Positions 2,823 to 43,397 of a DNA stretch of 64,000 bases are shown here, in pieces. Under the pieces are notes generated by a model. It was given only the letters and a program-made list of their open reading frames with translations, did no database searches and was not told the DNA's origin. The translations under genes and the position numbers were made by a program. The DNA lies in the NCBI GenBank assembly GCA_963663145.1, contig OY760134.1, forward strand, positions 256,416 through 320,415. Direction: 5' to 3'. Position 1 is the first letter of the stretch, and the number at the start of each line of letters is the position of its first letter. Origin of the DNA: Pseudomonadales bacterium (GTDB lineage Bacteria; Pseudomonadota; Gammaproteobacteria; Pseudomonadales; Azotimanducaceae).

Positions 2823-2980
2823 CGCTTCTCGCAGGTTCCACAGAAAGGGGGCGTATTCCCAAATCAAGCTTGCGCGACGCAGCGGCTTGCCTTGACGCAA
2901 AGGAAGCCTATTCAATTGTGCAGGAAGCCTTGATGCTTGACAAGCGATTAAAACTCATGTATAAGCCTTGACTATGACTA

Positions 2981-2992
2981 TTGATATATCAA
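2981..2992. promoter_or_regulatory. Perfect 12-bp palindrome TTGATATATCAA in the AT-rich region upstream of the giant adhesin gene
   Basis: Seen directly. It lies in a conspicuously AT-rich ~120-bp stretch (2950-3070) between ilvD and the 3135 start. Its function as an operator is only a guess. Confidence 0.2.
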
Positions 2993-3096
2993 GTAATTTT
3001 GGAGAGAATTAGATAAGCTGTTGATAATTCATTAGTTATTGCTAAGGGGCAGATGAAGGGATTCATTACCATCCGCGATTTGGGAGCGTACCCACC

Positions 3097-3104: not shown

Positions 3105-3134
3105 AACTCGGCGTCCAGCCTGGAGAGCAGTAGA

Positions 3135-6100
3135 ATGAAGCCCGGTTCGCAAAAGTTAAGTACTTTTGCGGGCTGTAGCCTGCCTTTACTGCTGATCATC
3201 CTCGCTTGGCTTTGGGCGACACCCGTCTTGGCACAAAGCGTGACGCTGTCGACAGGCTATTCACCCACCGTGAAAACGGCGACCTTGACCATTTCCGGCC
3301 ACACGGCCGCTTGGTGGCACAAGAGCGACCAAACCAACGCCACCTGCGCTTCCGTCGCCGCCAATTCCTCAAGCGCGGATCTGACCAACCTGACCGGTGG
3401 CACCACCTATGTGTGGAAAGCCTATAGCGATAGCAGTTGCAGCACTGAGCTTGCAAGCACGACCTTCACCACCATTGCCGTCACCATTGATCAGGTCACC
3501 GCGACGACGGCGAGGCTGAACCTCAATCACAACACCCATCGGACTTGGTCTTACAAGCAGACATCGCCGACAAGCAGTCCTGCCCAAGCTTGCCAGCAAG
3601 ACTGGCTTTGGGCGTTTAATCCAGAAGATAGTCCGCAATCGCTGACCGGATTATCGCCGAGCTCAAGCTACACCTTTACCGTCTATTGGGGCGCCGGCTG
3701 TGCGGCCGGAAAAGAGGCCGAAGCTGTCGCCTTCACTACTTCCGCTGCCACGCTGGCGGTCAGCAGCATCACGACGACAACGGCGACCCTGACCATTTCC
3801 GACCATTCGAACATCGCTTGGTGGTACCAAGGGAACCAAAGTGGCGCGACCTGCACGTCTGTCGCCGCGAACACCCTGACCGCGAATCTGGCCGACCTGA
3901 CAGTGGGTACGGAATATACCTACAAGGCCTATCGTGCCTCGGGCTGCGCTGCGGCAAACGAGATCGCCAGCCGCACTTTCACCACCCTAGCCGGCCCCCC
4001 GAGCGCGCCTTCCAATCTGAGCTCAACAAAATCTTGGCGTCCCGCCAGTCTCCCTCCGAATCCCGTGCAATACCCGAGTGGGATTCGGGTGCGATTCTCA
4101 TGGACCTCGGGTGCGGACAACGGCGCGACGATCACAGGCACCGACCTGCGATACCGACGAACGAGTCCCGTGGGCAGCTGGCAGATCCAGAGGAACGCAC
4201 ATATAACCGAAGCAACCCTGACGTTTGTTTCGACCATCACCAATTTCGGCAAGGCGATGGAGTTCCAGGTCAAGGACGACAACTCCAAGGGGGCTGGCAC
4301 GTGGTCCGCGTCTTCGGCCTTTACGGTGGCGCTCGAGCCAGCCAAGCCCACCGCACCGTCAATTACCCCCGGCCACAAGCAGTTGGGCCTTTCTTGGACG
4401 GCACCCGACAGCCGCGGCGCGGACATCACCGGCTATGAGGTCCAATACCGCTTGGGCAGTTCCGGAGACTGGACCGACCATACGCACTCCGGTACCGGAA
4501 CGACAGCGACCATCACCGGCCTGAACATAGCGACCGCCTACCAGGTGTGGTTCAGAGCCACCAACTCCGAGGGAGATGGGGCATGGTCGGATGCCGCGTC
4601 CGCAACCACACTCGATAGGCCGGGCGAAGTCGCGGGCCTGACCGCCACCGCCGGCAGCGACGGGTCCATCGATCTGGACTGGACCGCCATAAGCGAGGCG
4701 GCAAGCTACAAGGCGCAGTACAAGTATGGTACCCAAGACTGGTCGGCGACGCGGCAGTCCACGGCGACCACCAACTCGCTCAACATTGCCCGCAGCTTAC
4801 TCACCGCGAACACTGCCCACTCCTTCCGGGTGGCGGCGACAAACGGCAGCGGCGATGGTCCCTGGTCCGACGAGGTGGTGGCGACGCCGGTGGACGTGAC
4901 ACTGCAGGCGAGTACTGTCGGGGCGGACAGCGCGACTCTCACGATCGGCAACTACAGTGGCACTTGGTATTACAAGCAGAGCGCGCCGACGGCCGGAACC
5001 TGCTCTAGCGGGGTGTCCACCGCATCAACGACTCTAAGCAGCCTATCGACCGGCCAGATCCACACCTTCAAGGCCTATAAGGACAGTCAATGCACGGGCG
5101 CCGTGCTTGCCACCGCGCCTCCATTCCTGACCAAGCCCGGCAAGGCGGCTGGCGTGACGGCCACCGCGGCCGCCGCCGCCCTCGACCTGAGCTGGACCGC
5201 GACCACTGGCGCGTCGGGCTACAAGGTGCAATGGAAGTCCGGCAGCGACGATTGGAGCGCCACCAGCCGGCAGACCACCTCGACCACCGCCTCGGCGACG
5301 ATTCCTTCACTGACCAACGGCACGATTTACACGGTGCGCGTGGCGGCGGTCAACGACGTCGGCGACGGCGTCTGGTCGGACACCGCCACGGGCACACCGT
5401 CCGGGAGCGTGCTGCGCTTGGCGGCGGGGACATCGACAGGCGGTGCGGTGATCAACATCTCGGGACATGCCGGAACCTGGTACTCGAAAGCTACCCCGCC
5501 CACGGACGCCACCTGCGAAACGAACAGTACCTCCACAAAATCCGTGACGGGCAAAAGCTCGGGCACCAGCTACACGATTACGGCCTACAGCGACTCGAAC
5601 TGCGCGACCCAACTCACGTCGCTCGGGTTCACCACCCTGCCCGCCAAGGTGACCGGCGTGACTGTTGTGGCGCGCGCCGCCTCGCTCGGTGTGAGCTGGA
5701 CGGCGGAAACCGGCAACGCCGCCACCAGCTACAAGGTGCAGTGGAAGTCCGGCGCACAGGGCTACGCCGCCAACCGCCAGGTCATCACCACCAAGACCCG
5801 TGCATCGCTGACCGGCCTCACCAACGCCACGCAGTACACCATCCGCGTGGCGGCAACGAATGCCGGCGGCCCCGGCTCGTGGTCCGACAACGCCACCGGC
5901 ACGCCTTCGGCGACGGCGGTCACGCTGACCGCTAGCGTGACCGCCAGCGGGGGTTCGTTCACCCTCGCCAACCATGCCGGAAATTGGTGGTACAAGATCA
6001 CCCCGCCAGCCACCGCGACCTGCAGCCAAGGCCCTTCCAGCAAAACGCTCGTCAGCTCCACCTTGAGTTCCGGCACTGAATACACGCTCGCGGCCTACAG

Positions 6101-9100
6101 CGATTCATCCTGCGCCACGAAGCTCACCTTACTGGACTTCCTCACCCTGCCCGCAAAGACGACCGGCGTGACACTCGCCAACCAAGGCGCGTCCCTGCGC
6201 GCGAGCTGGACAGCCGTGACCGGCGCATCGGGCTACAAGGTGCAGTGGAAGTCCGGCAACGAGAACTTCGGCACCACCCGGCAGACCACCTCCGCCACAA
6301 CCTCGGCGACGATTCCTTCGCTGACCAACGGCACGGCCTACAGCATGCGTGTGGCGGCGGTCAACGCCGCCGGCGACGGCGCTTGGTCGGACACGGCGAC
6401 CGCGACGCCTTCGGTCAAGCTGATCGCCAGCAAGGTCACCGCGACCGGCGCGAGGCTGACCCTGGCGGGCCACACCGGGAGCTGGTACGTCGCTGGCTAT
6501 CGCGGCAACACCACGGTCATCGCCTGTAGCCGGGTGGACGGCTCTTGGAAGGACGTGACCCTACAGGGAAACAGGAGCTACTATTACGCGGCGTTCAGCT
6601 CTTCAAGATGCGAAGAGCCGGTGCTGGCGGACACGAGCTTCACTACGCCGGGCGCGATCAAGCTGCTGGCCGACAACGTCACCAAGAGCTCGGTCGAACT
6701 GTACCTTTATGGCTACAACAAGCGCGCCGGGGATCCGGATGTCTGGTACAGCCTGCGGCCGGCGAGCGGCAGGGCCGTGGTGGGGTGCGGCCGTTGGGGC
6801 CGGTCGCAAATCATCGGCGTCAGCCCCCTGGGCGCTGGGCAAACCTACACCGCGGAGGCGTTCTGGGACAGGAATTGCTCGCCGGAGCAGCGGCTGTCGA
6901 GCGTGACCTTCACGGCGCTCACCGATGCGGATGGGCCGCGCCCGTCGCTGGCCGCATCGAACCTGACCAGCACCGGCGCGACGCTGACGCTGTCCAACCA
7001 CACCGGCAACTGGTGGTACCAGAAGGGCGTCAACGGCGCCTGCACCGCAGTGACCGGCGGCGCGACGAGCGTGCACGTCACGGGGCTGACACCCAATAAG
7101 GACCAAGTCTTCTGGGCGTGGAGCCAAGACGAATGCGACCAGGCCGACGAGTCGACCGAGTGGTACGCCACGGCGCACTTCACCACCCCCGGGACGGTGA
7201 GCGTGTCGGTGGGCGACAAGACATCCACGGGCTTCACGCTCACGCTGCGTGGCTACACCCAAGCCAACGGCTATCCGGACACTTGGGCGTTCAACGTGCT
7301 GCGCAAGGCAAGCAATGGCTACTGGGAGGGCAGCCTCTGCCGCACGCTGCCGCGCGCCACGGACACCGCAGCGGTCACGGGGCTGGAGGCTGGCAAGCAG
7401 TACACGATCAACATCTACAACAGCCCGACCTGCAACTTCGCGTCCACAATTGTCAGCGCGACGCCGGTGACCATGACGAGCATGGCCGCTGGCAGCGTCG
7501 GGCCCTCGTCGGCGACGCTGACGCTGGAGCACCACGAGGGCGCGTGGTCGTACAAGGGCGGCGAGGCATCGGGGCAGGGCGCCGGCGCATCCTCCTCGTC
7601 AGGCGCGGGACAATGCCGATCCGTGCCTGCGGGCACCTACACCGCCGAGCTCGACAACCTGAGCGCGGGCACCGACTACGCCTACACCGCCCACTTCGGC
7701 GGGAACTGCGCGGGCGGCGAAATCGCCGCAACGAGCTTTACCACGCCGCAGTCAGCGACACCCGGCGCACCTGACGAACTCGCGGCCACGGCCGGAAACG
7801 CGAGCATCGCTCTGACTTGGAACAAACCGTCGGATGCGAGCATCACGGGCTACGAATACCAAGTGAGCCGCAACGACACGAATGGCGGCAAACTCAACGT
7901 CTGGAGCGACTGGATGGCCATCGGCGGTGCCGGCGCGGACACCGTTCTGCATAATGTTTCTGGGCTGATCAACGGGCACGAGTACCGCTTCCGCCTCCGA
8001 GCAGTCAACGATGCTGGGACGGGCACGAGCGCCCCCGTGGCGGCACCCTATTATGTCTCGGCGATACCGGAAGCCGACAAGAGGCCGTCGCCGCCGGCGA
8101 CGCCAAACTCGGTCTCCGTGGCGCTCGGCGATGGTGTTTTGAAAGTTGCTTGGTCGGCCGTCGAGCGTGCGACGGGCTACCACATCACCTACAGTTCCGA
8201 CAACGGCGCAAGCTGGAAGCTCGCGGCGGAGAACCATGCCGACAAACGGATCGCGATCTCCGGGGTGGACAACGCGCTCACATACATCGTCGGGGTGCGC
8301 GCCGTGAACGAGTACGGAAAAAGCGGCTGGACCAACTCGTCGCCCGTCGGACCCTTTTCCCCCGGGTCGCCGGAAAAGCCGGTCGAGGTGTGGGTCCTGT
8401 GCGGCGACGGCACTCTGAAGGTCTTCTGGTCGGCTGTCGAAGGCGCGACGGACTATCACATCACCTACAGCTCCGACCACGGGGCGAACTGGCACTTGGC
8501 GGCGCTGAATCATCCAACCAAAACCATCGAGATTGCGGGAATCGACAAGGCACTGACCTACATCGTCGGTGTGCGGGCGCGTAACAGGCACGGGTACGGT
8601 GGCTGGACCAACTCACGGCGCGCCGGGCCCTGCTCCGACGACGGCGCTTGGACGACGGGCGCGGGCATGGGCCCGTCCGGGGCGGCGGTGTCGCCGGTGC
8701 CGAACCTCGTGCCGAGCTTCGCAGGCGATGTCATCGTGCCCGATGCGTCCTCTTGGAAACAGAACACGCCCATCGAGCCGGTCACATTGCCCCGTGCCCA
8801 AGGCGGGAACGGGACGCCGATCTACTCGCTGTCGCCGGAGCTGCCGCAGGGACTCAGCTTCGATCCGGCCACACGGCTGCTGTCCGGCACACCCGCCGAG
8901 GCGCTTGAAGAGACCATGTACACTTATTCGGCAGCAGATGCCGACGGCGACGCGGCGGAGTTGACCTTCGCCGTCCGCGTGGCCGCGGACCTCGCGCCGG
9001 GCTTCGCCAACGCGGAGCCAATTTCGCTGCGCCTTGAGCAGTACAATGCCATGGATCCCCTGACGCTGCCGGAGGCGCGCGGCGGCGATGGGGAACTGCA

Positions 9101-10784
9101 TTACGAACTCTTGGGCGCGCTGCCCTGGGGGCTGGCATTCGACGCCGCCACGCGCACCCTGTCCGGCACGCCGATGGAGGTGTCTGCCGGGGCGAGCCTC
9201 AAATACCGAGTGGTGGATTCGGATGCGGTGGCGCCGGATTCGCACAGCTTGGCCATCGGGGTCGAGGTCGGGGTGTCGGCCGCGGACGCGGCGGCGCTGG
9301 AGGGGGCGCTGGCGGCGCAGGGCCGGGCGCTGTTGTCGGGCGCGGCCGGGGTGATCGGGGCGCGCCTGCGCGGCGTGGACGACGGTCAGGGCGGCGAGGG
9401 GTTGACGGAGGCTCTGTCGCGGGCGCTGTCGCAATTGGGCGCTGGGGGCGTCGGAGGCATGATCGACGTCGGCATTGAATTCGACGGTGCCTACGGGCCG
9501 ACCGCGGCGGACGATCTTACGGATAAAGGTGTGGTCATGCAAAGTGGTTCGCTCGGCGACGGCATGCCGCCGACGGATATGGGCGGCGGAGCGTCGCCGG
9601 GCATGCCGCGAAACCTCTCCTTCGCGCTGCCGTTCGGCGGCTCCGGGAACCCGGACGCTTGGATGCTCTGGGGCGCATCGGCAGAGCAGGGCTTCGACGG
9701 GGGTTCGGGTGCATCAGACTTCGATGGCAGGCTGTCCTCGGTCTACCTCGGCGCCGACGGACGGATCGGGGAAAACCTCATGGTCGGGGCGGCGCTCTCG
9801 CGCGGCGCCGGCCGGACGGATTACGACACCGGAACCGCTGGCGGCGCACCCGGTCGGCTCGACACCGAGATCCTCTCGGTGCATCCCTACATCCGCGGCC
9901 GACTCGCGTCGGGCTTCGAACTCTGGGCGTTGGGCGGCTACGGAAGCGGCGAACTCAAGAGCGAACGCGAACTTGAGGGGGCGTCGGCGGAGACGGCCGA
10001 CCTCTCGATGCGCATGGCCGCGGCAGGCCTTAGACGGAGCTTGAAGCCGCGCGGGCGCTTCGAACTCGCGCTGGTCGGCGGAGCGGGACATCTCAACCTG
10101 TCCACCGGGTCCGGCCAGCGGGCGGTTGACGGGCTTGAAACGGACGTGTCGCAGCTGCGCCTCGCGCTCGAAGTCTCGGCAGGCGGTGCGCTGTCGCCCC
10201 ACATCCAAGTGGGGACGCGCGCCGACGAGGTCGGGGGTCGAACCGACACTGGCCTCGAGGTGGTCGGAGGACTGCGCCACTCCGGCGAGCGGCTCGACTT
10301 CGAAGCGCTGGCGCGTTGGCTGTCCACTGGCTCGGACGACGGCGGGGGTTACGAGGAGTACGGGGGCAGCCTGCGGCTGACCCTGAAGGCGCTGCCGGAC
10401 GGCACCGGCCTGCGGTTCGGCCTGGCGCCGAGCTGGGGCCGCGCGGGCGTCGCCGGCGGACTCCTGGGCGGCGGGCGGTACGACATGTTCTCCGCGGCGA
10501 ACCAAGCGTTCGCCATGCCCGGTGCCGGTCAACGCCCCGCGCCGTCAATGGCGCTGGAAAGCGACCTCGGCTACGGCCTTGCGACGCGGCACGGATTGCT
10601 GGTGCTCGGCGGCGGCCACCGCCGCGACGCCTTCGGCGCCGCCGAACGCTACGGCTTCACCTGGGAGTCGGTGGGCGACGCGGACACCGGCTGGAACACC
10701 CGCCTGAGACTCGACTGGCACCCCGCCACCGGCACCACCGAAGCCGGCTGCGCCTTCGAACTCACTTGGCGCCGCGAGTTCTAA
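3135..10784 (+). CDS. Giant (2,549 aa) surface protein: signal peptide, two-Cys modules, FN3 repeats, He_PIG/Ig-like repeats and a C-terminal autotransporter (type Va) beta-barrel
   Basis: A single 7,650-nt ORF with SD GGAGAG 7 nt upstream and a signal peptide (LLLIILAWLWATPVLAQS). It contains 11 two-Cys ~85-aa modules. It has 9 canonical fibronectin-III repeats (e.g. LSWTA..GYKVQWKSG..Y.VRVAAVN..GDG.WS). It has 2 He_PIG/cadherin-like repeats (PIYSLSPELPQGLSFDPATRLLSGTP; LHYELLGALPWGLAFDAATRTLSGTP). A Gly/Ala linker precedes a ~380-aa beta-barrel ending ELTWRREF. Confidence 0.85.
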   Translation: MKPGSQKLSTFAGCSLPLLLIILAWLWATPVLAQSVTLSTGYSPTVKTATLTISGHTAAWWHKSDQTNATCASVAANSSSADLTNLTGGTTYVWKAYSDSSCSTELASTTFTTIAVTIDQVTATTARLNLNHNTHRTWSYKQTSPTSSPAQACQQDWLWAFNPEDSPQSLTGLSPSSSYTFTVYWGAGCAAGKEAEAVAFTTSAATLAVSSITTTTATLTISDHSNIAWWYQGNQSGATCTSVAANTLTANLADLTVGTEYTYKAYRASGCAAANEIASRTFTTLAGPPSAPSNLSSTKSWRPASLPPNPVQYPSGIRVRFSWTSGADNGATITGTDLRYRRTSPVGSWQIQRNAHITEATLTFVSTITNFGKAMEFQVKDDNSKGAGTWSASSAFTVALEPAKPTAPSITPGHKQLGLSWTAPDSRGADITGYEVQYRLGSSGDWTDHTHSGTGTTATITGLNIATAYQVWFRATNSEGDGAWSDAASATTLDRPGEVAGLTATAGSDGSIDLDWTAISEAASYKAQYKYGTQDWSATRQSTATTNSLNIARSLLTANTAHSFRVAATNGSGDGPWSDEVVATPVDVTLQASTVGADSATLTIGNYSGTWYYKQSAPTAGTCSSGVSTASTTLSSLSTGQIHTFKAYKDSQCTGAVLATAPPFLTKPGKAAGVTATAAAAALDLSWTATTGASGYKVQWKSGSDDWSATSRQTTSTTASATIPSLTNGTIYTVRVAAVNDVGDGVWSDTATGTPSGSVLRLAAGTSTGGAVINISGHAGTWYSKATPPTDATCETNSTSTKSVTGKSSGTSYTITAYSDSNCATQLTSLGFTTLPAKVTGVTVVARAASLGVSWTAETGNAATSYKVQWKSGAQGYAANRQVITTKTRASLTGLTNATQYTIRVAATNAGGPGSWSDNATGTPSATAVTLTASVTASGGSFTLANHAGNWWYKITPPATATCSQGPSSKTLVSSTLSSGTEYTLAAYSDSSCATKLTLLDFLTLPAKTTGVTLANQGASLRASWTAVTGASGYKVQWKSGNENFGTTRQTTSATTSATIPSLTNGTAYSMRVAAVNAAGDGAWSDTATATPSVKLIASKVTATGARLTLAGHTGSWYVAGYRGNTTVIACSRVDGSWKDVTLQGNRSYYYAAFSSSRCEEPVLADTSFTTPGAIKLLADNVTKSSVELYLYGYNKRAGDPDVWYSLRPASGRAVVGCGRWGRSQIIGVSPLGAGQTYTAEAFWDRNCSPEQRLSSVTFTALTDADGPRPSLAASNLTSTGATLTLSNHTGNWWYQKGVNGACTAVTGGATSVHVTGLTPNKDQVFWAWSQDECDQADESTEWYATAHFTTPGTVSVSVGDKTSTGFTLTLRGYTQANGYPDTWAFNVLRKASNGYWEGSLCRTLPRATDTAAVTGLEAGKQYTINIYNSPTCNFASTIVSATPVTMTSMAAGSVGPSSATLTLEHHEGAWSYKGGEASGQGAGASSSSGAGQCRSVPAGTYTAELDNLSAGTDYAYTAHFGGNCAGGEIAATSFTTPQSATPGAPDELAATAGNASIALTWNKPSDASITGYEYQVSRNDTNGGKLNVWSDWMAIGGAGADTVLHNVSGLINGHEYRFRLRAVNDAGTGTSAPVAAPYYVSAIPEADKRPSPPATPNSVSVALGDGVLKVAWSAVERATGYHITYSSDNGASWKLAAENHADKRIAISGVDNALTYIVGVRAVNEYGKSGWTNSSPVGPFSPGSPEKPVEVWVLCGDGTLKVFWSAVEGATDYHITYSSDHGANWHLAALNHPTKTIEIAGIDKALTYIVGVRARNRHGYGGWTNSRRAGPCSDDGAWTTGAGMGPSGAAVSPVPNLVPSFAGDVIVPDASSWKQNTPIEPVTLPRAQGGNGTPIYSLSPELPQGLSFDPATRLLSGTPAEALEETMYTYSAADADGDAAELTFAVRVAADLAPGFANAEPISLRLEQYNAMDPLTLPEARGGDGELHYELLGALPWGLAFDAATRTLSGTPMEVSAGASLKYRVVDSDAVAPDSHSLAIGVEVGVSAADAAALEGALAAQGRALLSGAAGVIGARLRGVDDGQGGEGLTEALSRALSQLGAGGVGGMIDVGIEFDGAYGPTAADDLTDKGVVMQSGSLGDGMPPTDMGGGASPGMPRNLSFALPFGGSGNPDAWMLWGASAEQGFDGGSGASDFDGRLSSVYLGADGRIGENLMVGAALSRGAGRTDYDTGTAGGAPGRLDTEILSVHPYIRGRLASGFELWALGGYGSGELKSERELEGASAETADLSMRMAAAGLRRSLKPRGRFELALVGGAGHLNLSTGSGQRAVDGLETDVSQLRLALEVSAGGALSPHIQVGTRADEVGGRTDTGLEVVGGLRHSGERLDFEALARWLSTGSDDGGGYEEYGGSLRLTLKALPDGTGLRFGLAPSWGRAGVAGGLLGGGRYDMFSAANQAFAMPGAGQRPAPSMALESDLGYGLATRHGLLVLGGGHRRDAFGAAERYGFTWESVGDADTGWNTRLRLDWHPATGTTEAGCAFELTWRREF
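3237..7746 (+). repeat. Intragenic array of 11 two-cysteine modules interleaved with FN3 repeats (coding repeats)
   Basis: The recurrent pattern is TLT(I/L).(G/N)H.G.W(W/Y)YK....(A/T)C...25-40 aa...(T/Y)Y...AY(S/K)DS.C......F(T)T. A strictly alternating module/FN3 block spans about 4890-6640. Confidence 0.6.
9615..10784 (+). other. Autotransporter-type beta-barrel translocator domain of the giant protein
   Basis: Alternating amphipathic strands are visible (SSVYLGADGRIGENLMVGAALSRG, ILSVHPYIRGRL, ELWALGGYGSGEL, LRLALEVSAG, GGSLRLTLKA). The terminal aromatic F is typical of OMP/autotransporter C-termini. Confidence 0.7.
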
Positions 10785-10915: not shown

Positions 10916-11033
10916 ACGAAACTTGATTGGCGGCGCATACTTCGGCTGTCCCTTCACCCCAAGTTGCAAATGAACCTCCTTGTCAGCGAGCCTCGTCAAG
11001 GCTGTCGCATCAGATCGGTACGCGGATCACACC

Positions 11034-12437
11034 ATGGCTAATTTCATTGGCCGCCGTTCGGAACTCAATGTGCTTGAGGCGGCATTCGCGTCCGGGCGCT
11101 CCGAGTGTATTCCAGTGTTCGGCAGACGTCGGGTTGGCAAGAGCGAACTCATCTTGAAGTTCATGAGGGGCAAGCCCGGTGTCTATTATCTCGGCGGGCA
11201 ATCACCGAGCAGCCTGCAAGTGCGCGAGTTTCTTGTGGAAGCGGCGCGCACGCTGAACATGCCGCTGCTGGCTGAACTCGGCGTCAGCGATTGGCGCAAG
11301 GCGCTGACAACCGTTGTCGATCAGTGGGCACTCACGCATCCGGATTCGAAACTGGTGTTGGCTCTGGATGAGTTCCAGTGGATCGCCGCATCTGAGCCCG
11401 GCCTTGTCGCAGACTTGCAGCATTGTTGGGACCGCCACTGGAAAACTACCGGCAGTGTGCTGTTGTTGCTTTCCGGTTCCTATATCGGTTTCATGGAACG
11501 TGAGGTGTTGGGTCAATCGAGCCCGCTCTTTGGTCGCCGCACGGCGCAAATCCATCTGCGTCCGTTCGGTTACCTGGAAGCCGCCGAATTTCACCCGAAT
11601 TGGTCACTCCATGACCGAGCGCGCGCCTACTTTCTGGTGGGCGGACTGCCGCAGTATCTGCTCTGCCTCAATGACCGCCTTTCCGTTCATAGCAACATTC
11701 GCCAAAACCTACTCAACGAATATGCGCCGCTCTTTCATGAACCCACGTTTCTGCTGCGAGAAGAACTGCGCGAGATCGCGCCCTACCACGCCATTTTGTT
11801 CGCGATTGCCGGTGGGAGGCGCACCGTGCGTGCGATCGCCAAGGCCACCGGCCTGCCGGATCGCAACCTGCATTACTATTTGCGGCAACTGGTCGATTTG
11901 GGATATGTGCAACGGTGCTACCCGCTCGATGGCCAACGAGCAAATCCGAAGCAGTTGCGTTTCGTGATCCGCGCCCCATTGCTCAGGTTCTGGTTCCGGT
12001 TCGTGTTCCCCAACAGCAGCATCATCCGCAGCGCCGGCGCTTCCCGCGCGTTCACCGAGCGTATCGCACCCTCGCTTGATGCTTGGTTTGGCAGCGGATT
12101 CGAACACCTCTGTCGCGAGGCCCTGCCGCTCATCTATGCGCACGAGGGCGTGGGCGCAGGTTTCGAGGTTGGTGAATACTGGAGTCCAACGACACAAATC
12201 GACACCGTAGGCCTGCGCGACGACAATTGGACGGACTTGGGCGAATGCAAATGGGGAACGGTGCGGTCGCCGGTCGCGTTGGAAGCGGAACTTGAGCGCA
12301 AGACAGGGTTGTTTTCGAACAATCGTGGTGCGACTCTGGGGCGCCGGTATTTTGTGCGCCGCAAGCCAACCGGACGAAAAGAGGCGCCCAACTGGTATGG
12401 GCTGGACGACCTCTACGCACTGGAGGCGGGTTCCTGA
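11034..12437 (+). CDS. P-loop ATPase (archaeal-ATPase/DUF234 type) with wHTH and a PD-(D/E)xK-like C-terminal domain
   Basis: Walker A is FGRRRVGKSE and Walker B is LVLALDEFQ. The wHTH-like segment is RTVRAIAKATGLPDRNLHYYLRQLVDLGYV. The C-terminal IDTVGL...LGECKWG has a D...ExK pattern. The ORF track starts at TTG 10980. ATG 11034 (MANFIGRRSEL) fits family N-termini better. Confidence 0.8.
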   Translation: MANFIGRRSELNVLEAAFASGRSECIPVFGRRRVGKSELILKFMRGKPGVYYLGGQSPSSLQVREFLVEAARTLNMPLLAELGVSDWRKALTTVVDQWALTHPDSKLVLALDEFQWIAASEPGLVADLQHCWDRHWKTTGSVLLLLSGSYIGFMEREVLGQSSPLFGRRTAQIHLRPFGYLEAAEFHPNWSLHDRARAYFLVGGLPQYLLCLNDRLSVHSNIRQNLLNEYAPLFHEPTFLLREELREIAPYHAILFAIAGGRRTVRAIAKATGLPDRNLHYYLRQLVDLGYVQRCYPLDGQRANPKQLRFVIRAPLLRFWFRFVFPNSSIIRSAGASRAFTERIAPSLDAWFGSGFEHLCREALPLIYAHEGVGAGFEVGEYWSPTTQIDTVGLRDDNWTDLGECKWGTVRSPVALEAELERKTGLFSNNRGATLGRRYFVRRKPTGRKEAPNWYGLDDLYALEAGS

Positions 12438-12512: not shown

Positions 12513-13913
12513 TCAGGAACTGAGAATTTCCTTCACGATGTCTGGCAGGCGCTCGACAAGATAGAGCGGCAGGGACAGCAGAGGGTAGTGGACTTGATGG
12601 GAGGAGTCTTTGATGCGTACCGCCGCCTGCACTTTCTGTAGGCTTGGTGGAGAGGCATCAAATCGAACTGCCAAGGCCGGTTCCTTCTCCGCCACGAACT
12701 GGTGCAGTGATTTGAGGGTGCCAACACGGCCTGCCTTAACCTCTATTGGCACAATCTGCCCCCCCAGTTCGACCACGTAGTCCACTTCTGCGTTGTTGGA
12801 GCGTCCCTCGCGCAGCCAGTATGTGAGCTCGCGATTGGGTCGCCGGGCAAGCAGGTATTGAAGGTGCTGACCGATGAATTGTTCGGCGCTGGTGCCAGCG
12901 TTCACCAAATCGGTGGTTCCAGCGGCCTGAATCGTTTCCCACCCGACGCCGCAGATCGCGTTCATCAGCCCAACGTCTAGAAAAAGCAGCTTAAAGACGT
13001 TCTCTTTGCAGTCGGCCTGCAGTGGCAGGCCGGAACAGGCGCTGTGCGTTACCTTTGAAGCAACCCGAGCCATGGTCAACAGCTCGATGTCGCGGCGAAT
13101 GGTTGCGCTCTGATCGTTTGGCGATATGTTGCTGAACTTCACCTTGCGGCCGGGCTGGCGGGCTGCAAAGTTGAAAACGCGCAGCATCCGGGTCATGTCG
13201 CGGCGCGCGGCATATTTCGGAAAGTCATCGCGATAGGTGTCAACTATGTTGGCGTGAACGTCGCTGACGTCTCGCAGACTACCGGAATCAGCGAACACAC
13301 ATACGGCTTCGGGCATGCCTCCGATATATTGATACAGGCGGAGATGTTGCAAGAGCTGCTCATGGATTATTGCCGGGATCGAGGCGCCGCTGCCGGTGCG
13401 CCACTCGAACTGATCGATGGTGCGGGCGAGCCTGCCCTTGCCGATGCCATTCAGTAACTCCGTGAAGGTCATCGGCCCAACCTGGAGGGAGTCCACCCGG
13501 CCCACGGGCATGGAAAACGCGTGGTCCGCCAGCGCAAACTCCATAAGCGAACTGGCGGCTATGACGGGTTGCTGGGGCATTTCCTCAAAAAAATACCGCA
13601 ACGAAGCGATCGCCGCCGGCACGGCCTGAATCTCGTCAAGGAAGAGAATGCCTTCAGCCGACAATGGCGTATCGAGAGCACTATGGAGCATGTCTAGAAT
13701 GGCCTTTGGATCGTTGCAGGCAAACACCTCACCAAGGTGTGGATGCCGTTCCAGATTAATCGCGGACAGGCTGCTGCCTTCTTGTTTGGCGAGCAATTCC
13801 ACCAGGGTGGATTTACCGACCTGCCGCGCCCCGCGAATTACCAGCGGCTTGCGCCGCCGGGAGTGCAGCCAAGTGCGAAGGTCTGTCGATTGATGTCGGT
13901 CCATGCGGCGCAA
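12513..13913 (-). CDS. AAA-type ATPase (AAA_14 + DUF4143 architecture, COG1373-like)
   Basis: Walker A is RGARQVGKST and Walker B is ILFLDEIQ. The C-terminal AEVDYVVELGGQIVPIEVKAG has a PD-(D/E)xK-like D...ExK pattern. The gene is convergent with the preceding ATPase gene across a 75-bp gap. Confidence 0.85.
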   Translation of the reverse strand: MRRMDRHQSTDLRTWLHSRRRKPLVIRGARQVGKSTLVELLAKQEGSSLSAINLERHPHLGEVFACNDPKAILDMLHSALDTPLSAEGILFLDEIQAVPAAIASLRYFFEEMPQQPVIAASSLMEFALADHAFSMPVGRVDSLQVGPMTFTELLNGIGKGRLARTIDQFEWRTGSGASIPAIIHEQLLQHLRLYQYIGGMPEAVCVFADSGSLRDVSDVHANIVDTYRDDFPKYAARRDMTRMLRVFNFAARQPGRKVKFSNISPNDQSATIRRDIELLTMARVASKVTHSACSGLPLQADCKENVFKLLFLDVGLMNAICGVGWETIQAAGTTDLVNAGTSAEQFIGQHLQYLLARRPNRELTYWLREGRSNNAEVDYVVELGGQIVPIEVKAGRVGTLKSLHQFVAEKEPALAVRFDASPPSLQKVQAAVRIKDSSHQVHYPLLSLPLYLVERLPDIVKEILSS

Positions 13914-13968: not shown

Positions 13969-14216
13969 TTTTCGTATCAAAATCACGTCTATGCCCCATT
14001 GCCCATCCTGCGGTAGTTTGATTTGGTCGAAGATTGCAAAGAGGAATGATCCGCAGCATGTCATTGCAGCTCTCAATTCTGCTGCCCAATGTCTGCTTCG
14101 ATTACGAGGCGGTATCGCCGGAACTCTATGGTTTGCGAAAACCGCGAACAAACTGGGTGGAATTAATCCCTACTTCGCTTGCTTCGTGACCCCACTAGGA
14201 GTAGGGAGAATTCTCC

Positions 14217-14411
14217 TTACTCCTCAACGATTGTCAGCACTTCCTCAGGACAACTCTCGACACCTATTCTTGCTTGGTCCTCTAAACCTGTCGGCACGTG
14301 GATGACTTCTTGGCGGAGGTATCCGTTGTCATCAAGGGTAAAGACATCTGGGGCCAAGGCTTCACAGCGGCCATGTCCTTGGCAAAGTTCAACATCACAA
14401 GTGACTTTCAT
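14217..14411 (-). CDS. Small [3Fe-4S]/[4Fe-4S] ferredoxin (P450-partner type, 64 aa)
   Basis: The cluster-binding pattern is C-x2-H-x2-C...CP (CQGHGRCEALAPDVF ... ESCPEE). Length and sequence are typical of actinobacterial/proteobacterial Fdx-type ferredoxins. Confidence 0.8.
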   Translation of the reverse strand: MKVTCDVELCQGHGRCEALAPDVFTLDDNGYLRQEVIHVPTGLEDQARIGVESCPEEVLTIVEE

Positions 14412-14432
14412 AGTGAAGGCTCCAATCTACCT

Positions 14433-15092
14433 TTAGCGAAAGCTTGGTTTCTTGTTGACGCGCTCTTCCATGCGGATGCGCGGCCCCATATTTCCGATAT
14501 GGGTGTAGGCCATGCCGTTTTGCAACGCCATGGACCTTGTCATATCAAGGGACTCCCAGATCGCGCGTACCGTCCCCTGAATCGGAGTGGGCGCGCGGGC
14601 GGCGATACTGGCGGCAATTTCGTGAGCACGTTCACGCAGGTCTGCTCTCTGTACCACCTCGGTGACCAGCCCAAGCCGCAAGGCGGTTTGTGCCGTGATA
14701 CGTTCCTCGGTTCCCATGAGCGCCCATCGAAGCACATCGCCCAACGGTACACCGCGAGCGAGCAGACCGATGGGCTCCAAGGCTGAAGTAATACCACCGT
14801 TGGCATGAGGGTCGAAGAAGGTCGCATCATCAGAGCAAAGGATGATGTCGGCCTCATTGATGAAGTACTGCGCACCTCCAGCGCATATTCCATGCACTGC
14901 GGCGATGACTGGTTTCCACACTTTGTGATGTTGTTTAGGGGCCAGTGACACGCCGGGGTCGAAGGTGTTCCACATGTTTTCTCTTACAAACCAACTCCCT
15001 CCCGCCTTAATATCCACCCCGGAACAGAAGGCGCGTTCTCCATTGGCGCGAAGAACCACAGTATGCACATTGTCGTCTTCGCGAAGGAACAC
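14433..15092 (-). CDS. Enoyl-CoA hydratase/isomerase (crotonase) family protein, probably 5'-truncated
   Basis: Crotonase core motifs are present (VVLRANGERAFCSGVDI, KPVIAAVHGICAGGA). The ORF begins with GTG directly after an in-frame TAG. It lacks the ~40 N-terminal residues normally preceding the VVL.G.G.AFC.G.D motif. Confidence 0.7.
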   Translation of the reverse strand: MFLREDDNVHTVVLRANGERAFCSGVDIKAGGSWFVRENMWNTFDPGVSLAPKQHHKVWKPVIAAVHGICAGGAQYFINEADIILCSDDATFFDPHANGGITSALEPIGLLARGVPLGDVLRWALMGTEERITAQTALRLGLVTEVVQRADLRERAHEIAASIAARAPTPIQGTVRAIWESLDMTRSMALQNGMAYTHIGNMGPRIRMEERVNKKPSFR

Positions 15093-15258: not shown

Positions 15259-16177
15259 CTATTCCACCTCACGCACCTTGATGGACATTGGCAGGGTCTT
15301 GCCATAGACATCCGCATCGTACATCTCCGCGGCTTCGGCGGAACGAACATGAAAGCGGCCGGAAGCTATGGCTTGCGCGGTGTAGCTGAGGTGATAGCGA
15401 CCGGCGGAGAGATAGTCGGAGTAAAAGCGAACCGAGTCGTGACACATCTCGCGGTGATAAAAGCTCCATCGCGGCGCGCCGTAAGACACCCAATCGGAAA
15501 AGTCGAACCACCATGAGCCGCCCGCAGCGGTGAAGCTGCCTTCTGCGGCGTCAACAGCGGAACTGGTCGCCAAGTCCCTGTTGACGGGTTCAAGACCGCC
15601 GGGCACATGATCGTCCACCAACACAAAATGCCTTGCGGTGGGAAGATTGAGAAAGAGATCGACCCTGACGAGTTCTCCCCGCTCAATGACGGCATCGCCC
15701 GAGAGCTTGCGCCATTCGCCATCTCGAAGGACGGCGTACTCGCGGCGGAGATCCATTCCGGCATTCACCCGCTCAAGATTGTTTGATTTGGGCGCATAGG
15801 CAAGACGGGTTGCATAGTGCAGTCGGCCCTGGCCTTCGCGCCTGATGATGACCTCCGACCGATTGCCCGGATGGCTGGCAAGGATAGGAGTGGAGAATTC
15901 CTGTGCCGGATTGCTCGTGGCCGTGAATTCACCGGCACCCATGCGCGTGTTGTCAAGCAAGACCTCGAACTTCATTTCGGGATTGGCCTCTTCCCATCGC
16001 CTCGCGTAGTCGATCAACGCGTTCATGCAGAACACGTTTTCTTGGGTGTTCTCCCAATGATCACGGTTGTCCCGCGCCTGTGTGGTGGCGCGCGCGAGGC
16101 GTGAGGCGAGCTGATCAAACCCATCGTTGCCGTGGATTTTGGTAAGGGCGGACAGCACAGAAGTGGCCCCGGAAATT
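15259..16177 (-). pseudogene. C-terminal ~305-codon fragment of a bacterial alpha-2-macroglobulin (YfhM-like) gene, truncated by the IS3-family element
   Basis: The sequence (RWEEANPEMKFEVLLDN.., LHYATRLAYAP.., FVLVDDHVPGGLEPVN, SFYHREMCHDSVRFYSDYLSAGRYHLSY) matches the receptor-binding/C-terminal end of 1,500-1,900-aa bacterial A2M proteins. The frame is open up to the IS inverted repeat at 16178, and the N-terminal >1,200 codons are absent. Confidence 0.75.
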
Positions 16178-16224
16178 TGAACAACACGTTAAGGTGTGGC
16201 CAATCGGCATAGGAGCCCATTGGC

Positions 16225-16473
16225 ATGGCGAAAAGGGAGCAGTAGTCGGCGGAGTTCAAAGCGAAGGTGGCGGTCTCGGCGATCCGCTACAAGATCCATC
16301 CGAACATGATCACCAAGTGGAAGCGCGAAGCGCGGGAAGGCATGAAGGACCGCTTCGCCCGCGGCGGCAAATCGAGCCAGGGCGATCACCAGGCGGAACT
16401 CGAGGAACTGCGCGCCAAGATTGGCGAGTTGGTGGTGGAACGGGATTTTTTGCAGCGCGCCTTCGATCGATGA
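16225..16473 (+). pseudogene. IS3-family orfA (HTH protein) with an in-frame TAG at codon 7 and an apparent internal deletion
   Basis: After SD AGGAG it reads ATG GCG AAA AGG GAG CAG TAG, then TCG GCG GAG TTC AAA GCG... (MAKREQ*SAEFKAKVAVSAIRYKIHPNMITKWKRE...). Family members read REQYSAEFKAKVALEA(10-14 aa of HTH)..HPN.I..WK. Confidence 0.65.
16446..16452 (+). other. Candidate -1 programmed frameshift heptamer T TTT TTG at the orfA/orfB overlap
   Basis: It has the X XXY YYZ form in the orfA frame (GAT TTT TTG). orfB is in the -1 frame relative to orfA, and the site lies 20 nt before the orfA stop. Confidence 0.45.
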
Positions 16474-17315
16474 GCGTCGAGCGAAGGCGAGAGATGGTGG
16501 GGCGGGAGCGCCACAAGCTCAGCTTGAGCCGGCGGTGCCGGCTGCCCGGCATCAGCCGCGGCAGCCTGTGCTGCCGGCCGAGGGGCGAGTCGCAAAAGAA
16601 TCTGGCGCTGATGCGCCGGATCGACGAGCAGTCCCTGAAGACCCCGTGGCACGGCGCCCGGCAGATGGCGCGCACCTTGCGTCGGCAAGGACATCCGGTG
16701 GGCCGCAAACGCGTGGGCCGGCTGATGCGGCTGATGGGTCTGCGTTCGCTGGCGCCGGGGCCCGACACCGGCCGCAAGCACCCGACGCATCCGATCTGCC
16801 CTTACCTGCTCAGGGACCGCCGTATCGACGCGCCCAACCAGGTCTGGTGCGATGATGTCACCTACATTCCACTGGCGCACGGCTTTGTGTATCTGGTGGC
16901 GATCATGGACTGGCACACGCGCCACGTGCTGTCGTGGCAACTGTCGATCACCCAGGAGGCGAGTTTCTGCCTGGACGCGCTGGACGCCGCCCTGGAGCGC
17001 TATGGCAAGCCGGAGATCTTCAACACCGACGAAGGCAGCCAATTCACCAGCCGGGATTGGACGGACACGCTGGAAGCGTCCGGCATTCGGATCTCCATGG
17101 ATGGCAAAGGCCGCTGGCTGGACAACGTATTCATCGAGCGGCTGTGGCGCTCGCTCAAGCAGGAGTGCGTCTACCTCAATGCCTTCGACTCGGTACGCGA
17201 CTGCCAGGCCAGCATCAGCGCGTGGATGGAGTATTACAATCGAGAACGCACACACTCGAGCCTCGGCGACCTCACGCCCAGCGAGGCGTGCGAAACGTGG
17301 CGGGAAGCCGCATGA
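16470..17315 (+). CDS. IS3-family transposase orfB (DDE integrase core)
   Basis: The rve-type catalytic core is present: NQVWCDDVTYIP (D), IFNTDEGSQFTS (D), NVFIERLWRSLKQE (E). ATG 16470 overlaps the orfA stop (ATGA). The upstream extension of the ORF to 16194 is just the open -1 frame. Confidence 0.85.
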   Translation: MSVERRREMVGRERHKLSLSRRCRLPGISRGSLCCRPRGESQKNLALMRRIDEQSLKTPWHGARQMARTLRRQGHPVGRKRVGRLMRLMGLRSLAPGPDTGRKHPTHPICPYLLRDRRIDAPNQVWCDDVTYIPLAHGFVYLVAIMDWHTRHVLSWQLSITQEASFCLDALDAALERYGKPEIFNTDEGSQFTSRDWTDTLEASGIRISMDGKGRWLDNVFIERLWRSLKQECVYLNAFDSVRDCQASISAWMEYYNRERTHSSLGDLTPSEACETWREAA

Positions 17316-28132: not shown

Positions 28133-29401
28133 TTAGCGTTCGTCGATCTTGCGTACTTCCGGCAGCAAGAGCGCGAGCATCAAATGCGCGATCAACAATA
28201 ATCCGCCGCCGACAGCGAGTGCCAAGGGAACGCCCGCCATCTCCGCCAACCATCCGAGTGGCAAAATGCCGACCGGTGCGAGTCCGTGCAGCATCATGTC
28301 AATGCTCATGACTCGGCCACGCATCTCGTCATCCACTTTGAGTTGAATCATGCCTCGGGACAGCGACATGTTGAAGGCGCTGACTCCACCGACGAGGGTT
28401 GCCCAGAAGATGGCAATGAGAAACGCGTCGGACTGGGAAAAAGACAAGATCAATATTCCCCAGAGTGCGCCACTTGCGATTAGCCAGTAGCCCTTGCGGC
28501 TGATTGCCGCGTTGCCGGAGAGCAGCAGCGAGCCGAGGATCGCGCCGATACCTATGGCGGTCATGATGAGCCCCAATTCGGTTGGTCCGCCACCGAGCAC
28601 CCGTTCGTTCATAGAAGGCATGAGGGTGTGGAAGGGCACGGCGAATATGAAGGGCATCACCGTAAATAGAACCAACCCCCAAATAACTCGATTCGCAAAC
28701 AGATACTGAAGCCCGGCTTTCAGGTCATCAAAGGGTGATGCCCGTTGTTCCGACTGAGCGGCCGTGTGGGGATTGCGCCCAGGATCGTCGATCCGCAGCG
28801 TGGAGATGGCGGCAAAGGCGTACAGCCCAGTGATCAGGCAATAGACAACACCGACACCTTGGGCAACGCCTTCCAAACCCTTGGTGACGAGGGCGATCAG
28901 AACCCCCGCGACTGCCGGCCCGAGTACGCGGGTGAGGTTCCAGACCGCGTTATTGAGCGCAACGGCATTGACCGCGCGATCAGTCCCGACGATTTCAACC
29001 GCAAATGCTCCGCGAGCCGGCATGAGGATAGAGAGCATCGAACCATTGACGAATCCGAGCCATATAAAATCCCAGAAGTCGGCACTGCCCGTCAGTATGA
29101 GCATTGCCATGAAGCCTGTGGCGATGGTGTTCATCACTTGCGCCACGAAAATGATTGGTCGCTTCGAAATGCGGTCGGCGAGCACCCCACCCCAGAGTGC
29201 GAACAGCAATTGAGGCAGCGAGAAGGAGATCATCACCCAAGCAAGATCGAGTTCGGAGCCGGTGAGATCGAACACATACAGGCCGCGGGCGAGAATCTGC
29301 ATATTCATCGCCATGGAAGTACAGAGGAGCCCCAGCCACAGCAATCGGTAGTTGCGCATGCCAAGCACCCCGAAGGTGCGGCGGGGTAGGGCGAGCCGCA
29401 T
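28133..29401 (-). CDS. MFS transporter
   Basis: The 422-aa protein has ~12 predicted TM segments. It has an MFS-like loop 2-3 motif (GGVLADRISKRP). Confidence 0.85.
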   Translation of the reverse strand: MRLALPRRTFGVLGMRNYRLLWLGLLCTSMAMNMQILARGLYVFDLTGSELDLAWVMISFSLPQLLFALWGGVLADRISKRPIIFVAQVMNTIATGFMAMLILTGSADFWDFIWLGFVNGSMLSILMPARGAFAVEIVGTDRAVNAVALNNAVWNLTRVLGPAVAGVLIALVTKGLEGVAQGVGVVYCLITGLYAFAAISTLRIDDPGRNPHTAAQSEQRASPFDDLKAGLQYLFANRVIWGLVLFTVMPFIFAVPFHTLMPSMNERVLGGGPTELGLIMTAIGIGAILGSLLLSGNAAISRKGYWLIASGALWGILILSFSQSDAFLIAIFWATLVGGVSAFNMSLSRGMIQLKVDDEMRGRVMSIDMMLHGLAPVGILPLGWLAEMAGVPLALAVGGGLLLIAHLMLALLLPEVRKIDER

Positions 29402-30261: not shown

Positions 30262-30337
30262 TGGTGGGTCGTCTGGGGCTCGAACCCAGGGCCCACGGGT
30301 TAAAAGCCCGTTGCTCTACCGACTGAGCTAACGACCC
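30262..30337 (-). tRNA. tRNA-Lys (anticodon UUU), CCA encoded
   Basis: Hand-folded cloverleaf: acceptor GGGTCGT/ACGACCC, D stem GCTC/GAGC, anticodon stem ACGGG/CCCGT with loop CTTTTAA, T stem CTGGG/CCCAG with loop TTCGAGC. Total 76 nt. Confidence 0.95.
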
Positions 30338-42393: not shown

Positions 42394-43281
42394 TCACTCG
42401 CCGCTACTGCGGTATTTCTCATTCAAGCTCCAGAGTATCGCAAGCGTCTCGACATCAGGTTCTCCGGAATAGCCGCTGGGACGAAAACGAAGTTGCATGG
42501 CGCGAACGGCAAAGCGCGTCTGATTGTCAAGTTCACCTGTTGTTCTCACCTGATAGCCGAGTCTCAATAGGGCGGTCTGCAGCTTCTCAATTGATGGCGG
42601 CTCGGTTGCGAATTGCGACTCGAAGCGCGCCTTGGCTTCTTGCTCATACCAAGCGCCGATGCCTGCCTCGTACAGCCGCTGCCAGGGGAACAGCGGACCA
42701 GGGTCCGACCTGTACGGGATCACAATATCGGAGTGGGCGACCACGTCGAGTGGGGCGATGTTGGGATGGCGTTGCAAAATCCCGTGGAGCAACTCGATGA
42801 CCATGTCGATTTGCGCTTCGCTGAACGGCAGGAAATTACATTGCACCGAATCGAGTGGGCTGTCCGGACTCGTATTCGCAGCCTCCTCACAACGGAATTC
42901 ATTCACGATTTCTATGCCAATCGAGCGGCTGTTCAGTGCCGTTATTCCCGCCCAGTAGCTGGGGCCCGCATGCCATGCTGCTCGATCTTCATCGACGAAC
43001 TGATGCAAGCGAAGACTGCGGTGATTGTAGGTGGGGTCGCCTTCGGCGGGAATCAGATAGTGCGAGCTGACCGGGCGGTCAGTCCGAGTTGTGAGCAATC
43101 TCACCGATTCGGCGAAATCTTCGGAGGTGGCATGAATCACAACATGGTCCACCCGACTGCTGTGATTGGTCGATTCGATGATGACCGTGTCTGTGCAGGC
43201 GACCAGCAACCACGGGAGAATAAGCACTTGCAGTTTTTTCGCCCAGCGAATGCCGTTGCTAGTGACGGTAGTGAATCTCAT
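42394..43281 (-). CDS. N-acetylmuramoyl-L-alanine amidase lipoprotein (AmiD/AmpD fold) with a C-terminal peptidoglycan-binding domain
   Basis: It has the lipobox LLVAC and Amidase_2 motifs (VVIHATSE, SSHYLIP, AWHAG, SIGIEIVN). It also has a PG_binding_1-like C-terminus (LQTALLRLGYQVRTTGELDNQTRFAVRAMQ). Confidence 0.85.
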   Translation of the reverse strand: MRFTTVTSNGIRWAKKLQVLILPWLLVACTDTVIIESTNHSSRVDHVVIHATSEDFAESVRLLTTRTDRPVSSHYLIPAEGDPTYNHRSLRLHQFVDEDRAAWHAGPSYWAGITALNSRSIGIEIVNEFRCEEAANTSPDSPLDSVQCNFLPFSEAQIDMVIELLHGILQRHPNIAPLDVVAHSDIVIPYRSDPGPLFPWQRLYEAGIGAWYEQEAKARFESQFATEPPSIEKLQTALLRLGYQVRTTGELDNQTRFAVRAMQLRFRPSGYSGEPDVETLAILWSLNEKYRSSGE

Positions 43282-43397
43282 GGTGACCTTCTCCTCTGAC
43301 GTTCATATGCAAAAGCCTTAGTATGCGCGATTGCTGGGCAGAGCGTGAGAAGGAAAAACTTGCCCGCAGCTTCAGTCCCGACGAAATGGAGGTCACT

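Follow-up and report, generated by a model that had tools for sequence, protein, structure and literature searches.

We analysed a 64,000-nt window of the genome of a Pseudomonadales bacterium (assembly GCA_963663145.1, contig OY760134.1, positions 256,416 to 320,415 of the forward strand), with a focus on a giant gene near its beginning. This gene occupies window positions 3135-10784 on the forward strand as one unbroken open reading frame (ORF) of 7,650 nt, starting with ATG and encoding 2,549 amino acids (aa). It follows an argA-like acetyltransferase gene (15-1091) and ilvD (1107-2774), from which it is separated by a 360-nt intergenic region. An earlier reading of the sequence, which we refer to as the original prediction, described the product as a type Va autotransporter whose passenger is a string of fibronectin type III (FN3) and Ig-like beads; the uninterrupted 2,549-aa frame that it reported is confirmed here. 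We consider it fairly probable that the product is a giant adhesin-type surface protein with a type V-like mode of display, in which Sec export is followed by insertion of a C-terminal barrel, a helix occupies the barrel lumen, and the bead string stays attached outside. The features of the gene and of its upstream region are given below. Structure predictions are from AlphaFold2 (AF2), with predicted local distance difference test (pLDDT) values as the measure of confidence, and module assignments come from Pfam or from locally built hidden Markov models (HMMs), for which independent E-values (i-E) are quoted.

2931..3050, forward strand: AT-rich upstream stretch (GC 0.325 versus 0.59 for the whole window) with promoter-like sites
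3122..3127, forward strand: Shine-Dalgarno-like GGAGAG, 7 nt before the ATG, read from the sequence
3135..3233, forward strand: Sec-type signal peptide, aa 1-33, MKPGSQKLSTFAGCSLPLLLIILAWLWATPVLA followed by QS, from the translation by inspection
3234..3989, forward strand: three Cys-pair FN3-like modules, aa 34-285 (module HMM i-E 5e-29, 3e-25 and 3e-30; Pfam fn3 26.2 bits)
3990..4883, forward strand: three FN3 modules, aa 311-395 (weak), 402-490 and 496-583 (Pfam fn3, local FN3 HMM)
4884..6404, forward strand: three super-repeats of 168-170 aa, each a Cys-pair module plus a canonical FN3, aa 584-1090 (DNA repeats)
6405..7751, forward strand: five successive Cys-pair FN3-like modules, aa 1091-1539 (HMM i-E 7e-30 to 3e-24; Pfam fn3 26.9 bits)
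7752..8624, forward strand: three FN3 modules, aa 1543-1637, 1654-1737 and 1746-1830 (Pfam fn3 E 3e-22 over three stretches, local HMM)
8712..9269, forward strand: two He_PIG (putative Ig) modules, aa ~1860-2045 (PF05345 E 8.5e-16, two stretches)
9279..9380, forward strand: conserved 34-residue alpha-helix, aa 2049-2082, candidate pore-spanning linker (AF2 pLDDT 82-91)
9381..9617, forward strand: short second helix and variable Gly/Ala/Pro-rich linker, aa 2083-2161 (pLDDT 25-48, predicted disordered)
9618..10781, forward strand: C-terminal outer-membrane beta-barrel domain, aa 2162-2549 (PF03797, AF2, family alignment)
10782..10784, forward strand: stop codon (translation)

The signal peptide that had been proposed has the expected Sec-type features on inspection. 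It combines a basic n-region (K2/K7) with a hydrophobic core at aa 15-32 (mean Kyte-Doolittle hydropathy 2.0-2.5) and a VLA/QS cleavage-type site. We rejected a lipoprotein reading of the FAGC motif at aa 11-14, since Cys14 precedes the hydrophobic region and there is hence no lipobox.

The signal peptide leads into a passenger made up of 22 modules, and the proposed composition of 11 two-Cys modules, nine FN3, and two He_PIG proved exact. The protein contains 26 cysteines, 22 of which form 11 consecutive pairs with a spacing of 28-36 residues. An HMM built from the ~85-residue modules around these pairs found exactly 11 copies (i-E 1e-24 to 1e-30), located at aa 33-114, 114-203, 201-285, 584-667, 754-835, 923-1005, 1091-1172, 1172-1262, 1267-1347, 1352-1447, and 1449-1538. 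Pfam recognises them only marginally as fn3 (26-27 bits against a cutoff of 25). The nine canonical FN3 modules include, besides the six listed in the runs above, those of the super-repeats (aa 668-753, 836-922, and 1006-1090), which follow one another at DNA spacings of 507 and 504 nt with 67-83% identity.

An AF2 model of the first super-repeat (aa 584-753) reached a pLDDT of 94.2 and consists of two sandwiches of 6-7 strands each. Its best matches in the Protein Data Bank (PDB) were the tandem FN3 domains of LAR, neogenin, DCC, and fibronectin (E ~1e-9), which makes the Cys-pair modules FN3-fold beads as well. Scans with the fn3 and He_PIG families both hit the passenger. The Pfam scans returned fn3, He_PIG, and related beta-sandwich families, with no beta-helix, pertactin, or autochaperone-type family among them. 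The view of the passenger as a chain of beta-sandwich beads in place of a beta-helix is therefore upheld by the domain scans, the high-confidence model, and the tandem FN3 matches.

Between the beads and the barrel lies the 34-residue helix, which corresponds to residues 10-43 of our AF2 model of the C-terminus and is conserved throughout the family with the consensus WLARFGRT.A. The linker that follows is indeed rich in Gly and Ala, as had been noted, and also in Pro; AF2 predicts a Gly-rich disordered stretch of ~55 residues within it, and its occupancy in the family alignment is low. The C-terminal domain proper (~390 aa) opens with a conserved GSSF.L strand, continues with ~18 predicted transmembrane strands, and closes on a terminal Phe (...FELTWRREF). 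The original prediction of a ~380-aa barrel ending in ELTWRREF was thus right about the ending and nearly so about the size, while its count of 12 strands disagrees with both the model and the alignment, which give ~18.

Whole-protein scans with Pfam and NCBIfam reported no autotransporter domain; PF03797, the Pfam autotransporter family, emerges only when the C-terminus is searched alone. Residues 2049-2549 then match it with E 6e-10 and 39.7 bits (cutoff 26) over profile positions 9-114 of 255, i.e. the first ~45%, so that an established autotransporter model does recognise this domain. In an alignment of the window C-terminus with 24 homologous C-termini (alignment A1), 13 of the 25 sequences match PF03797, the best with E 2.7e-12, and in some homologues the match extends over profile positions 1-205 or 5-233. 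Positions 5-233 map approximately one-to-one onto ~214 residues, after which ~160 more residues follow. Over its first ~5-11 strands, the barrel shares homology with the autotransporter beta-domain, and it appears to be ~130 residues longer.

The AF2 model of residues 2040-2549 was computed from the 25-sequence alignment and reached a predicted template modelling score of 0.72. It shows a barrel of 18 long strands over 372 residues, with pLDDT mostly 85-97; the two chain termini face the same side. An alignment of 179 homologues conserves the alternating hydrophobicity of all 18 segments and has a consensus terminus of RW or RF. In a Foldseek search, NalP (1uyn) ranked first (E 9e-6), and Hbp, EspP, BrkA, and EstA were among the top PDB matches. 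Free translocator-domain entries gave target-normalised TM-scores of 0.54-0.65 and a root-mean-square deviation of ~5 Å or more, and 22-strand TonB receptors scored similarly. This similar match quality to 12-strand translocators and to 22-strand receptors suggests a barrel of intermediate size.

The main competing account is that the protein is an ordinary 12-strand type Va autotransporter, in which AlphaFold over-assigns strands and the extra ~130 residues belong to long loops or to an add-on in the periplasm or outside the cell. The PF03797 score above cutoff and the top rank of autotransporter translocators among the small-barrel matches are what this account would lead one to expect, and the last five predicted strands are modelled with less confidence (pLDDT 61-91). 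Celik et al. also noted "long-type" autotransporter barrels (group 13, AIDA-I/Ag43) and left the matter of extra strands open (PMC3419190). Set against this are the ~160 residues that follow the PF03797-mapped part in homologues and the membrane-strand-like hydrophobicity kept across 179 sequences. The only long low-confidence loop in the model, at 42 residues, and the modest scores against 12-strand translocators are also at odds with it. The AIDA-I barrel was reportedly solved later with 12 strands, which we count in favour of the 12-strand account. Overall, we regard that account as rather unlikely.

Several observations weigh against our own interpretation. The NCBIfam autotransporter model TIGR01414 is unmatched by the window C-terminus at E<=1, and a single homologue reaches 13.7 bits, below the cutoff of 16. 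Neither phmmer nor the family profile found a solved autotransporter chain among PDB sequences at E<=10. The strand count comes from one AF2 model, itself built on 25 sequences, together with the hydrophobicity pattern. Mean-field direct-coupling analysis of the 179 homologues (effective number of sequences 122) gave a few adjacent-strand pairs among many non-neighbour pairs and was too noisy to bear out strand pairing or barrel closure. Lastly, ~80 mostly disordered residues stand between the helix and the first barrel strand, whereas the two are directly joined in classical autotransporters. The type Va label is sustained by the layout, the PF03797 similarity, and the NalP fold match, but not by the predicted strand number, TIGR01414, or the solved sequences.

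Comparing thirds and quarters of the barrel with hhalign for an expansion by internal duplication yielded nothing significant (probability <=13%). Neither POTRA nor Bac_surface_Ag matched the protein or its C-terminus in Pfam even at E<=10, and CdiB was a weak fold match only (query-normalised TM-score 0.33).

The C-terminal domain is shared by a very large family. We searched 1.84 billion cluster representatives (clusters at 50% identity) with a profile of this domain, and obtained 6,388 proteins under a threshold of E<=1e-30, a number that rises to 8,848 under E<=1e-10; their lengths are ~500-4,600 residues. By this measure, the same domain appears to end the proteins of at least 6,388 clusters. 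We take these matches to represent this particular family and not autotransporters in general, because the same profile matches no classical autotransporter in the PDB. Of 179 full-length matches, 175 have the domain at their very C-terminal end. The protein in our window belongs to a large family, found in metagenomes, that earlier work had noticed but left uncharacterised.

The passengers carried by this domain are diverse. Among 48 sampled members, we found Calx-beta in 21, fn3 in 19, He_PIG in 10, and leucine-rich repeats (LRR) in six, as well as cadherin, PKD, Big, and scavenger-receptor cysteine-rich (SRCR) domains. The SRCR domain belongs to one member of the P0137-P0237 sample (E 2e-61), and in several other members the same barrel bears animal-type cadherin (E 4e-78) or arrays of LRR. 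These passengers look strikingly eukaryote-like. The architecture that had been called unusual is so with respect to characterised autotransporters; within the family, similar bead passengers recur on the same barrel, and with its C-terminal domain ending at least 6,388 clusters the architecture is not rare.

We also scanned a collection of species-representative genomes with an eight-sequence alignment. Relatives occurred in metagenome-assembled genomes (MAGs) labelled Pseudomonadales, Pseudohongiella, Vicinamibacteria/Vicinamibacterales, Binatia, Latescibacterota, and Marinacidobacterium, with up to three family copies per genome and many proteins longer than 3,000 aa. An all-against-all comparison of flanking ORFs at 18 homologous loci and the window revealed no conserved partner gene (chaperone, TamA-like, or protease), and flanking genes were shared by at most three syntenic genomes. 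The lack of a conserved neighbour fits a self-contained system. At two of the loci, both in Vicinamibacterales MAGs, the barrel region is interrupted, with a 69-aa ORF in L016 and an ORF ending inside the barrel in L014; these copies may be pseudogenes or frameshifted family members.

Sequence similarity between members is distributed as a mosaic. The N-terminal modules of our protein are 72-79% identical to those of P0028/P0029, and its super-repeats have ~70% identity with P0002/P0003. With P0017-P0023 the super-repeats still have 67% identity, although the barrels of these proteins share only 28% with the one in the window. The best match of the barrel itself, in P0025, has 54% identity. 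In total, we counted 451 matches to the super-repeat, spread over 135 proteins. Over ~500 aa, the super-repeat is 63-72% identical to repeats of proteins in the range P0002-P0039 that have barrels only ~28-44% identical to ours. From these comparisons, passenger modules appear much better conserved than the barrels, or else exchanged more recently, and they have evidently been shuffled between loci.

Such a repetitive gene, in a genome that is apparently metagenome-assembled, could in principle be an artefact in which repeats were collapsed, expanded, or joined into a chimera. Its best pair of internal DNA repeats has only 83% identity over 144 nt, the frame stays open for 7,650 nt, and the contig measures 3.07 Mb; moreover, homologues in other assemblies preserve the region order across 60-94% of the length. 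Repeat misassembly is unlikely on these grounds, and we give very little credence indeed to an artefactual ORF.

Taken as a type V-like protein, the giant gene product would reach the surface in a short series of steps. The Sec signal peptide would bring it into the periplasm, where the beta-barrel assembly machinery (BAM), on the model of known outer-membrane proteins, would place the ~390-aa C-terminal domain in the outer membrane as a beta-barrel. By analogy with the linker helices of autotransporters, the conserved 34-residue helix would then span the barrel lumen. The ~2,000-residue passenger would lie outside, still attached, as a string of 22 FN3/Ig-like beads with a length of roughly 70-80 nm. 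These beads might offer eukaryote-like adhesion modules to host matrix, host cells, or other surfaces. The domain order, the barrel fold, the partial homology to autotransporters, the terminal beta-signal, and the lack of a conserved partner gene are shown or supported by the analysis; BAM dependence, threading of the passenger, surface exposure by the protein's own beta-domain, and an adhesive function are inferred.

The same parts could be put to a different use, with the barrel serving only as a membrane anchor or pore and the bead string, not threaded through it, either remaining periplasmic or reaching the surface by another route. A classical autotransporter pore would have difficulty admitting eleven disulfide loops of 28-36 residues (PMC8151025), and the helix is not adjacent to strand 1. 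Yet the domain order and the conserved helix follow autotransporter logic, no partner gene is conserved, and the passenger types of the family (cadherin, LRR, SRCR, and FN3) are extracellular adhesion modules. In addition, 22 beads of ~3.5 nm each give 70-80 nm, far beyond the width of the periplasm, which counts against a periplasmic string. We thus judge the anchor-only alternative improbable.

A more specific version of type V-like display can be put forward tentatively. The family may constitute a distinct and very abundant type V subclass, defined by an autotransporter-derived barrel of ~18 strands, the WLARFGRT helix, and a long flexible linker, with a wider lumen through which strings of beta-sandwich adhesion domains (FN3, Calx-beta, cadherin, He_PIG, PKD, LRR, and SRCR) would be exported and displayed. 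It is conceivable, on somewhat less than even terms, that such a barrel exports pre-formed disulfide loops of ~30 residues that would stall in a 12-strand pore; we hypothesise that a wider pore suits a passenger with eleven disulfide-type loops of 28-36 residues. With comparable reserve, we suggest that host-associated marine bacteria could use the barrel as a general platform for eukaryote-like adhesion modules.

Base composition had been taken as a sign that the gene was acquired horizontally. The giant gene is indeed richer in GC than ilvD upstream, with GC 0.663 and GC at third codon positions (GC3) 0.816 versus 0.604 and 0.687. Neighbouring genes have GC3 values of 0.655-0.687, and a median of 0.67 is obtained over all 37 stop-to-stop ORFs in the window that reach 300 aa. 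The giant gene is the top outlier; its first 900 nt have a GC3 of 0.687. Ala, Thr, Gly, and Ser jointly account for 47% of the protein. We ruled out the excess being a mere effect of this Gly/Ala/Thr-rich composition, as GC3 itself is 0.82 compared with 0.66-0.69 in neighbours.

All 12 of the homologous genes from other genomes that we compared show the same excess, with GC3 values of 0.76-0.95 against 0.63-0.80 in their flanks. High GC3 is therefore a family trait and not specific evidence of recent acquisition at this locus. The observed excess is real, and we reject it as proof of recent transfer; because the 12 homologues show that excess too, it is weak even as a sign of transfer. Shared codon bias, frequent recombination, and exchange within a community are possible causes. 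Across the loci L001-L017, which span several phyla, the GC3 of family genes exceeds that of most of their flanks by 0.1-0.3, for which biased gene conversion among repeats is another candidate cause.

The AT-rich promoter region that had been described ahead of the gene is present at 2931-3050. It holds sigma-70-like sites at 2981-3009 and 3000-3028, which are consensus matches only (three found versus 0.4 expected).

Downstream of the giant gene, a patch of genes and gene fragments precedes the rest of the window. The ORF, domain, and Rfam scans identified the following features:

10980-12437, forward strand: ATPase_2+DUF234 gene, an orphan ATPase gene in the downstream patch
12513-13913, reverse strand: AAA_14+DUF4143 gene, an orphan ATPase gene in the downstream patch
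14433-15092, reverse strand: truncated enoyl-CoA hydratase ORF in the downstream patch
15259-16158, reverse strand: isolated alpha-2-macroglobulin MG10 fragment in the downstream patch
16194-17312, forward strand: IS3-type transposase (rve+HTH_21) in the downstream patch
28133-29398, reverse strand: EntS-like major facilitator superfamily transporter, ordinary iron-uptake content
30265-30337, reverse strand: tRNA, the sole Rfam match, far from the giant gene
33467-34813, reverse strand: TolB, housekeeping
55003-57138, forward strand: TonB-dependent siderophore-type receptor
60887-63385, reverse strand: second TonB-dependent siderophore-type receptor

GC falls to 0.50 at 14001-14500, and housekeeping genes resume beyond the patch. 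The segment 10980-17312 adjoining the giant gene looks like a variable or mobile region; the IS3 transposase, the gene fragments, and the mosaic similarity provide some hints of this that are independent of base composition. TolB and the TonB-dependent receptors in the window indicate an organism with an outer membrane, i.e. a diderm, and the bearer is probably a host-associated marine bacterium. Elsewhere in the window, a DUF3604 protein of 676 aa (43323-45350, forward strand, E 1e-150) is overlapped by a 271-aa ORF on the reverse strand (43278-44093), which is probably spurious.

Characterised monomeric autotransporters combine a 12-strand barrel with a passenger that is nearly always Cys-poor and beta-helical. 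Type V research has long asked how much folded or disulfide-bonded structure can cross that barrel. Thousands of clusters in the present family keep the autotransporter layout and differ in both respects, with passengers built as strings of FN3/Ig-like beads, many of these beads with a disulfide-type Cys pair, on a barrel that prediction makes larger by half. Should this enlargement prove real, the family would provide a natural test of pore size as the limit on passenger folding, as well as a possible display scaffold for folded beta-sandwich domains. It would also explain how the "eukaryotic-like" FN3, cadherin, and LRR proteins of symbionts arrive at the surface; the study that described them lists domain architectures and does not discuss export (PMC6506613). 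Should the barrel have 12 strands, the protein would merely add another member to an adhesin family that is poorly annotated.

Among known systems, the closest in layout are the classical type Va autotransporters (NalP 1uyn, EspP 2qom, Hbp 3aeh, BrkA 3qq2, and EstA 3kvn). Like them, the giant protein has a signal peptide, an N-terminal passenger, a helix, and a C-terminal barrel with an aromatic end; it has significant PF03797 similarity over the first strands, and its top structural matches among small barrels belong to this class. Unlike them, it has a barrel ~130 residues longer, with ~18 predicted strands instead of 12, and a helix ~80 residues away from strand 1. Its passenger consists of 22 beta-sandwich beads with 11 disulfide-type Cys pairs, in place of a beta-helix poor in Cys, and scans detected no region of the autochaperone or pertactin type in it. 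We do not file the protein as classical type Va, because its predicted strand number exceeds 12, TIGR01414 and the solved chains are unmatched, and the linker geometry is different.

Two published classifications define the type Va barrel as 12-stranded, name EstA as the sole solved type Va passenger that is not beta-helical, and make no mention of FN3 or Ig-like passengers (PMC3419190, PMC9289746). Type V passengers are usually poor in Cys, with closely spaced Cys where present, and Ig-like bead passengers are assigned to the inverse type Ve class (PMC8151025). The giant protein resembles type Ve proteins (intimin and invasin) in presenting a rod of independently folding Ig-like domains on a single-chain barrel with an adhesin role (PMC8151025). 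However, type Ve has a 12-strand N-terminal barrel and a C-terminal passenger, whereas here the order is reversed and the barrel is related to PF03797. Types Vb and Vd (FhaC and PlpD) differ further in having POTRA domains and a 16-strand Omp85 barrel; no POTRA match occurs here.

A combination of FN3, cadherin, and "autotransporter" domains had already been described by Burgsdorf et al. in 2019 in cyanobacterial symbionts of sponges (PMC6506613). The FN3 proteins of sponge symbionts, including "Ca. Synechococcus feldmannii" 277cV_123, were read as eukaryotic-like proteins that bind host matrix or host cells (PMC6506613). Likened by domain description, our protein shares with them the kind of domain combination, the many FN3 per protein, and the several such proteins per genome. 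That study presents domain architectures only, without an analysis of the barrel, its size, or the export route (PMC6506613).

The giant adhesins of RTX/type I secretion systems (LapA, SiiE, and MpIBP) likewise use very long strings of ~100-aa beta-sandwich repeats to distance an adhesive region from the cell. They lack a Sec signal peptide, have a type I secretion signal as well as RTX repeats at the C-terminus, and are held in a TolC-like pore; our protein, unlike them, has a signal peptide and a barrel of its own, and no RTX/HemolysinCabind match in Pfam. Of the systems compared, the giant protein most likely works in the manner of an autotransporter, with which it shares homology over part of the barrel.

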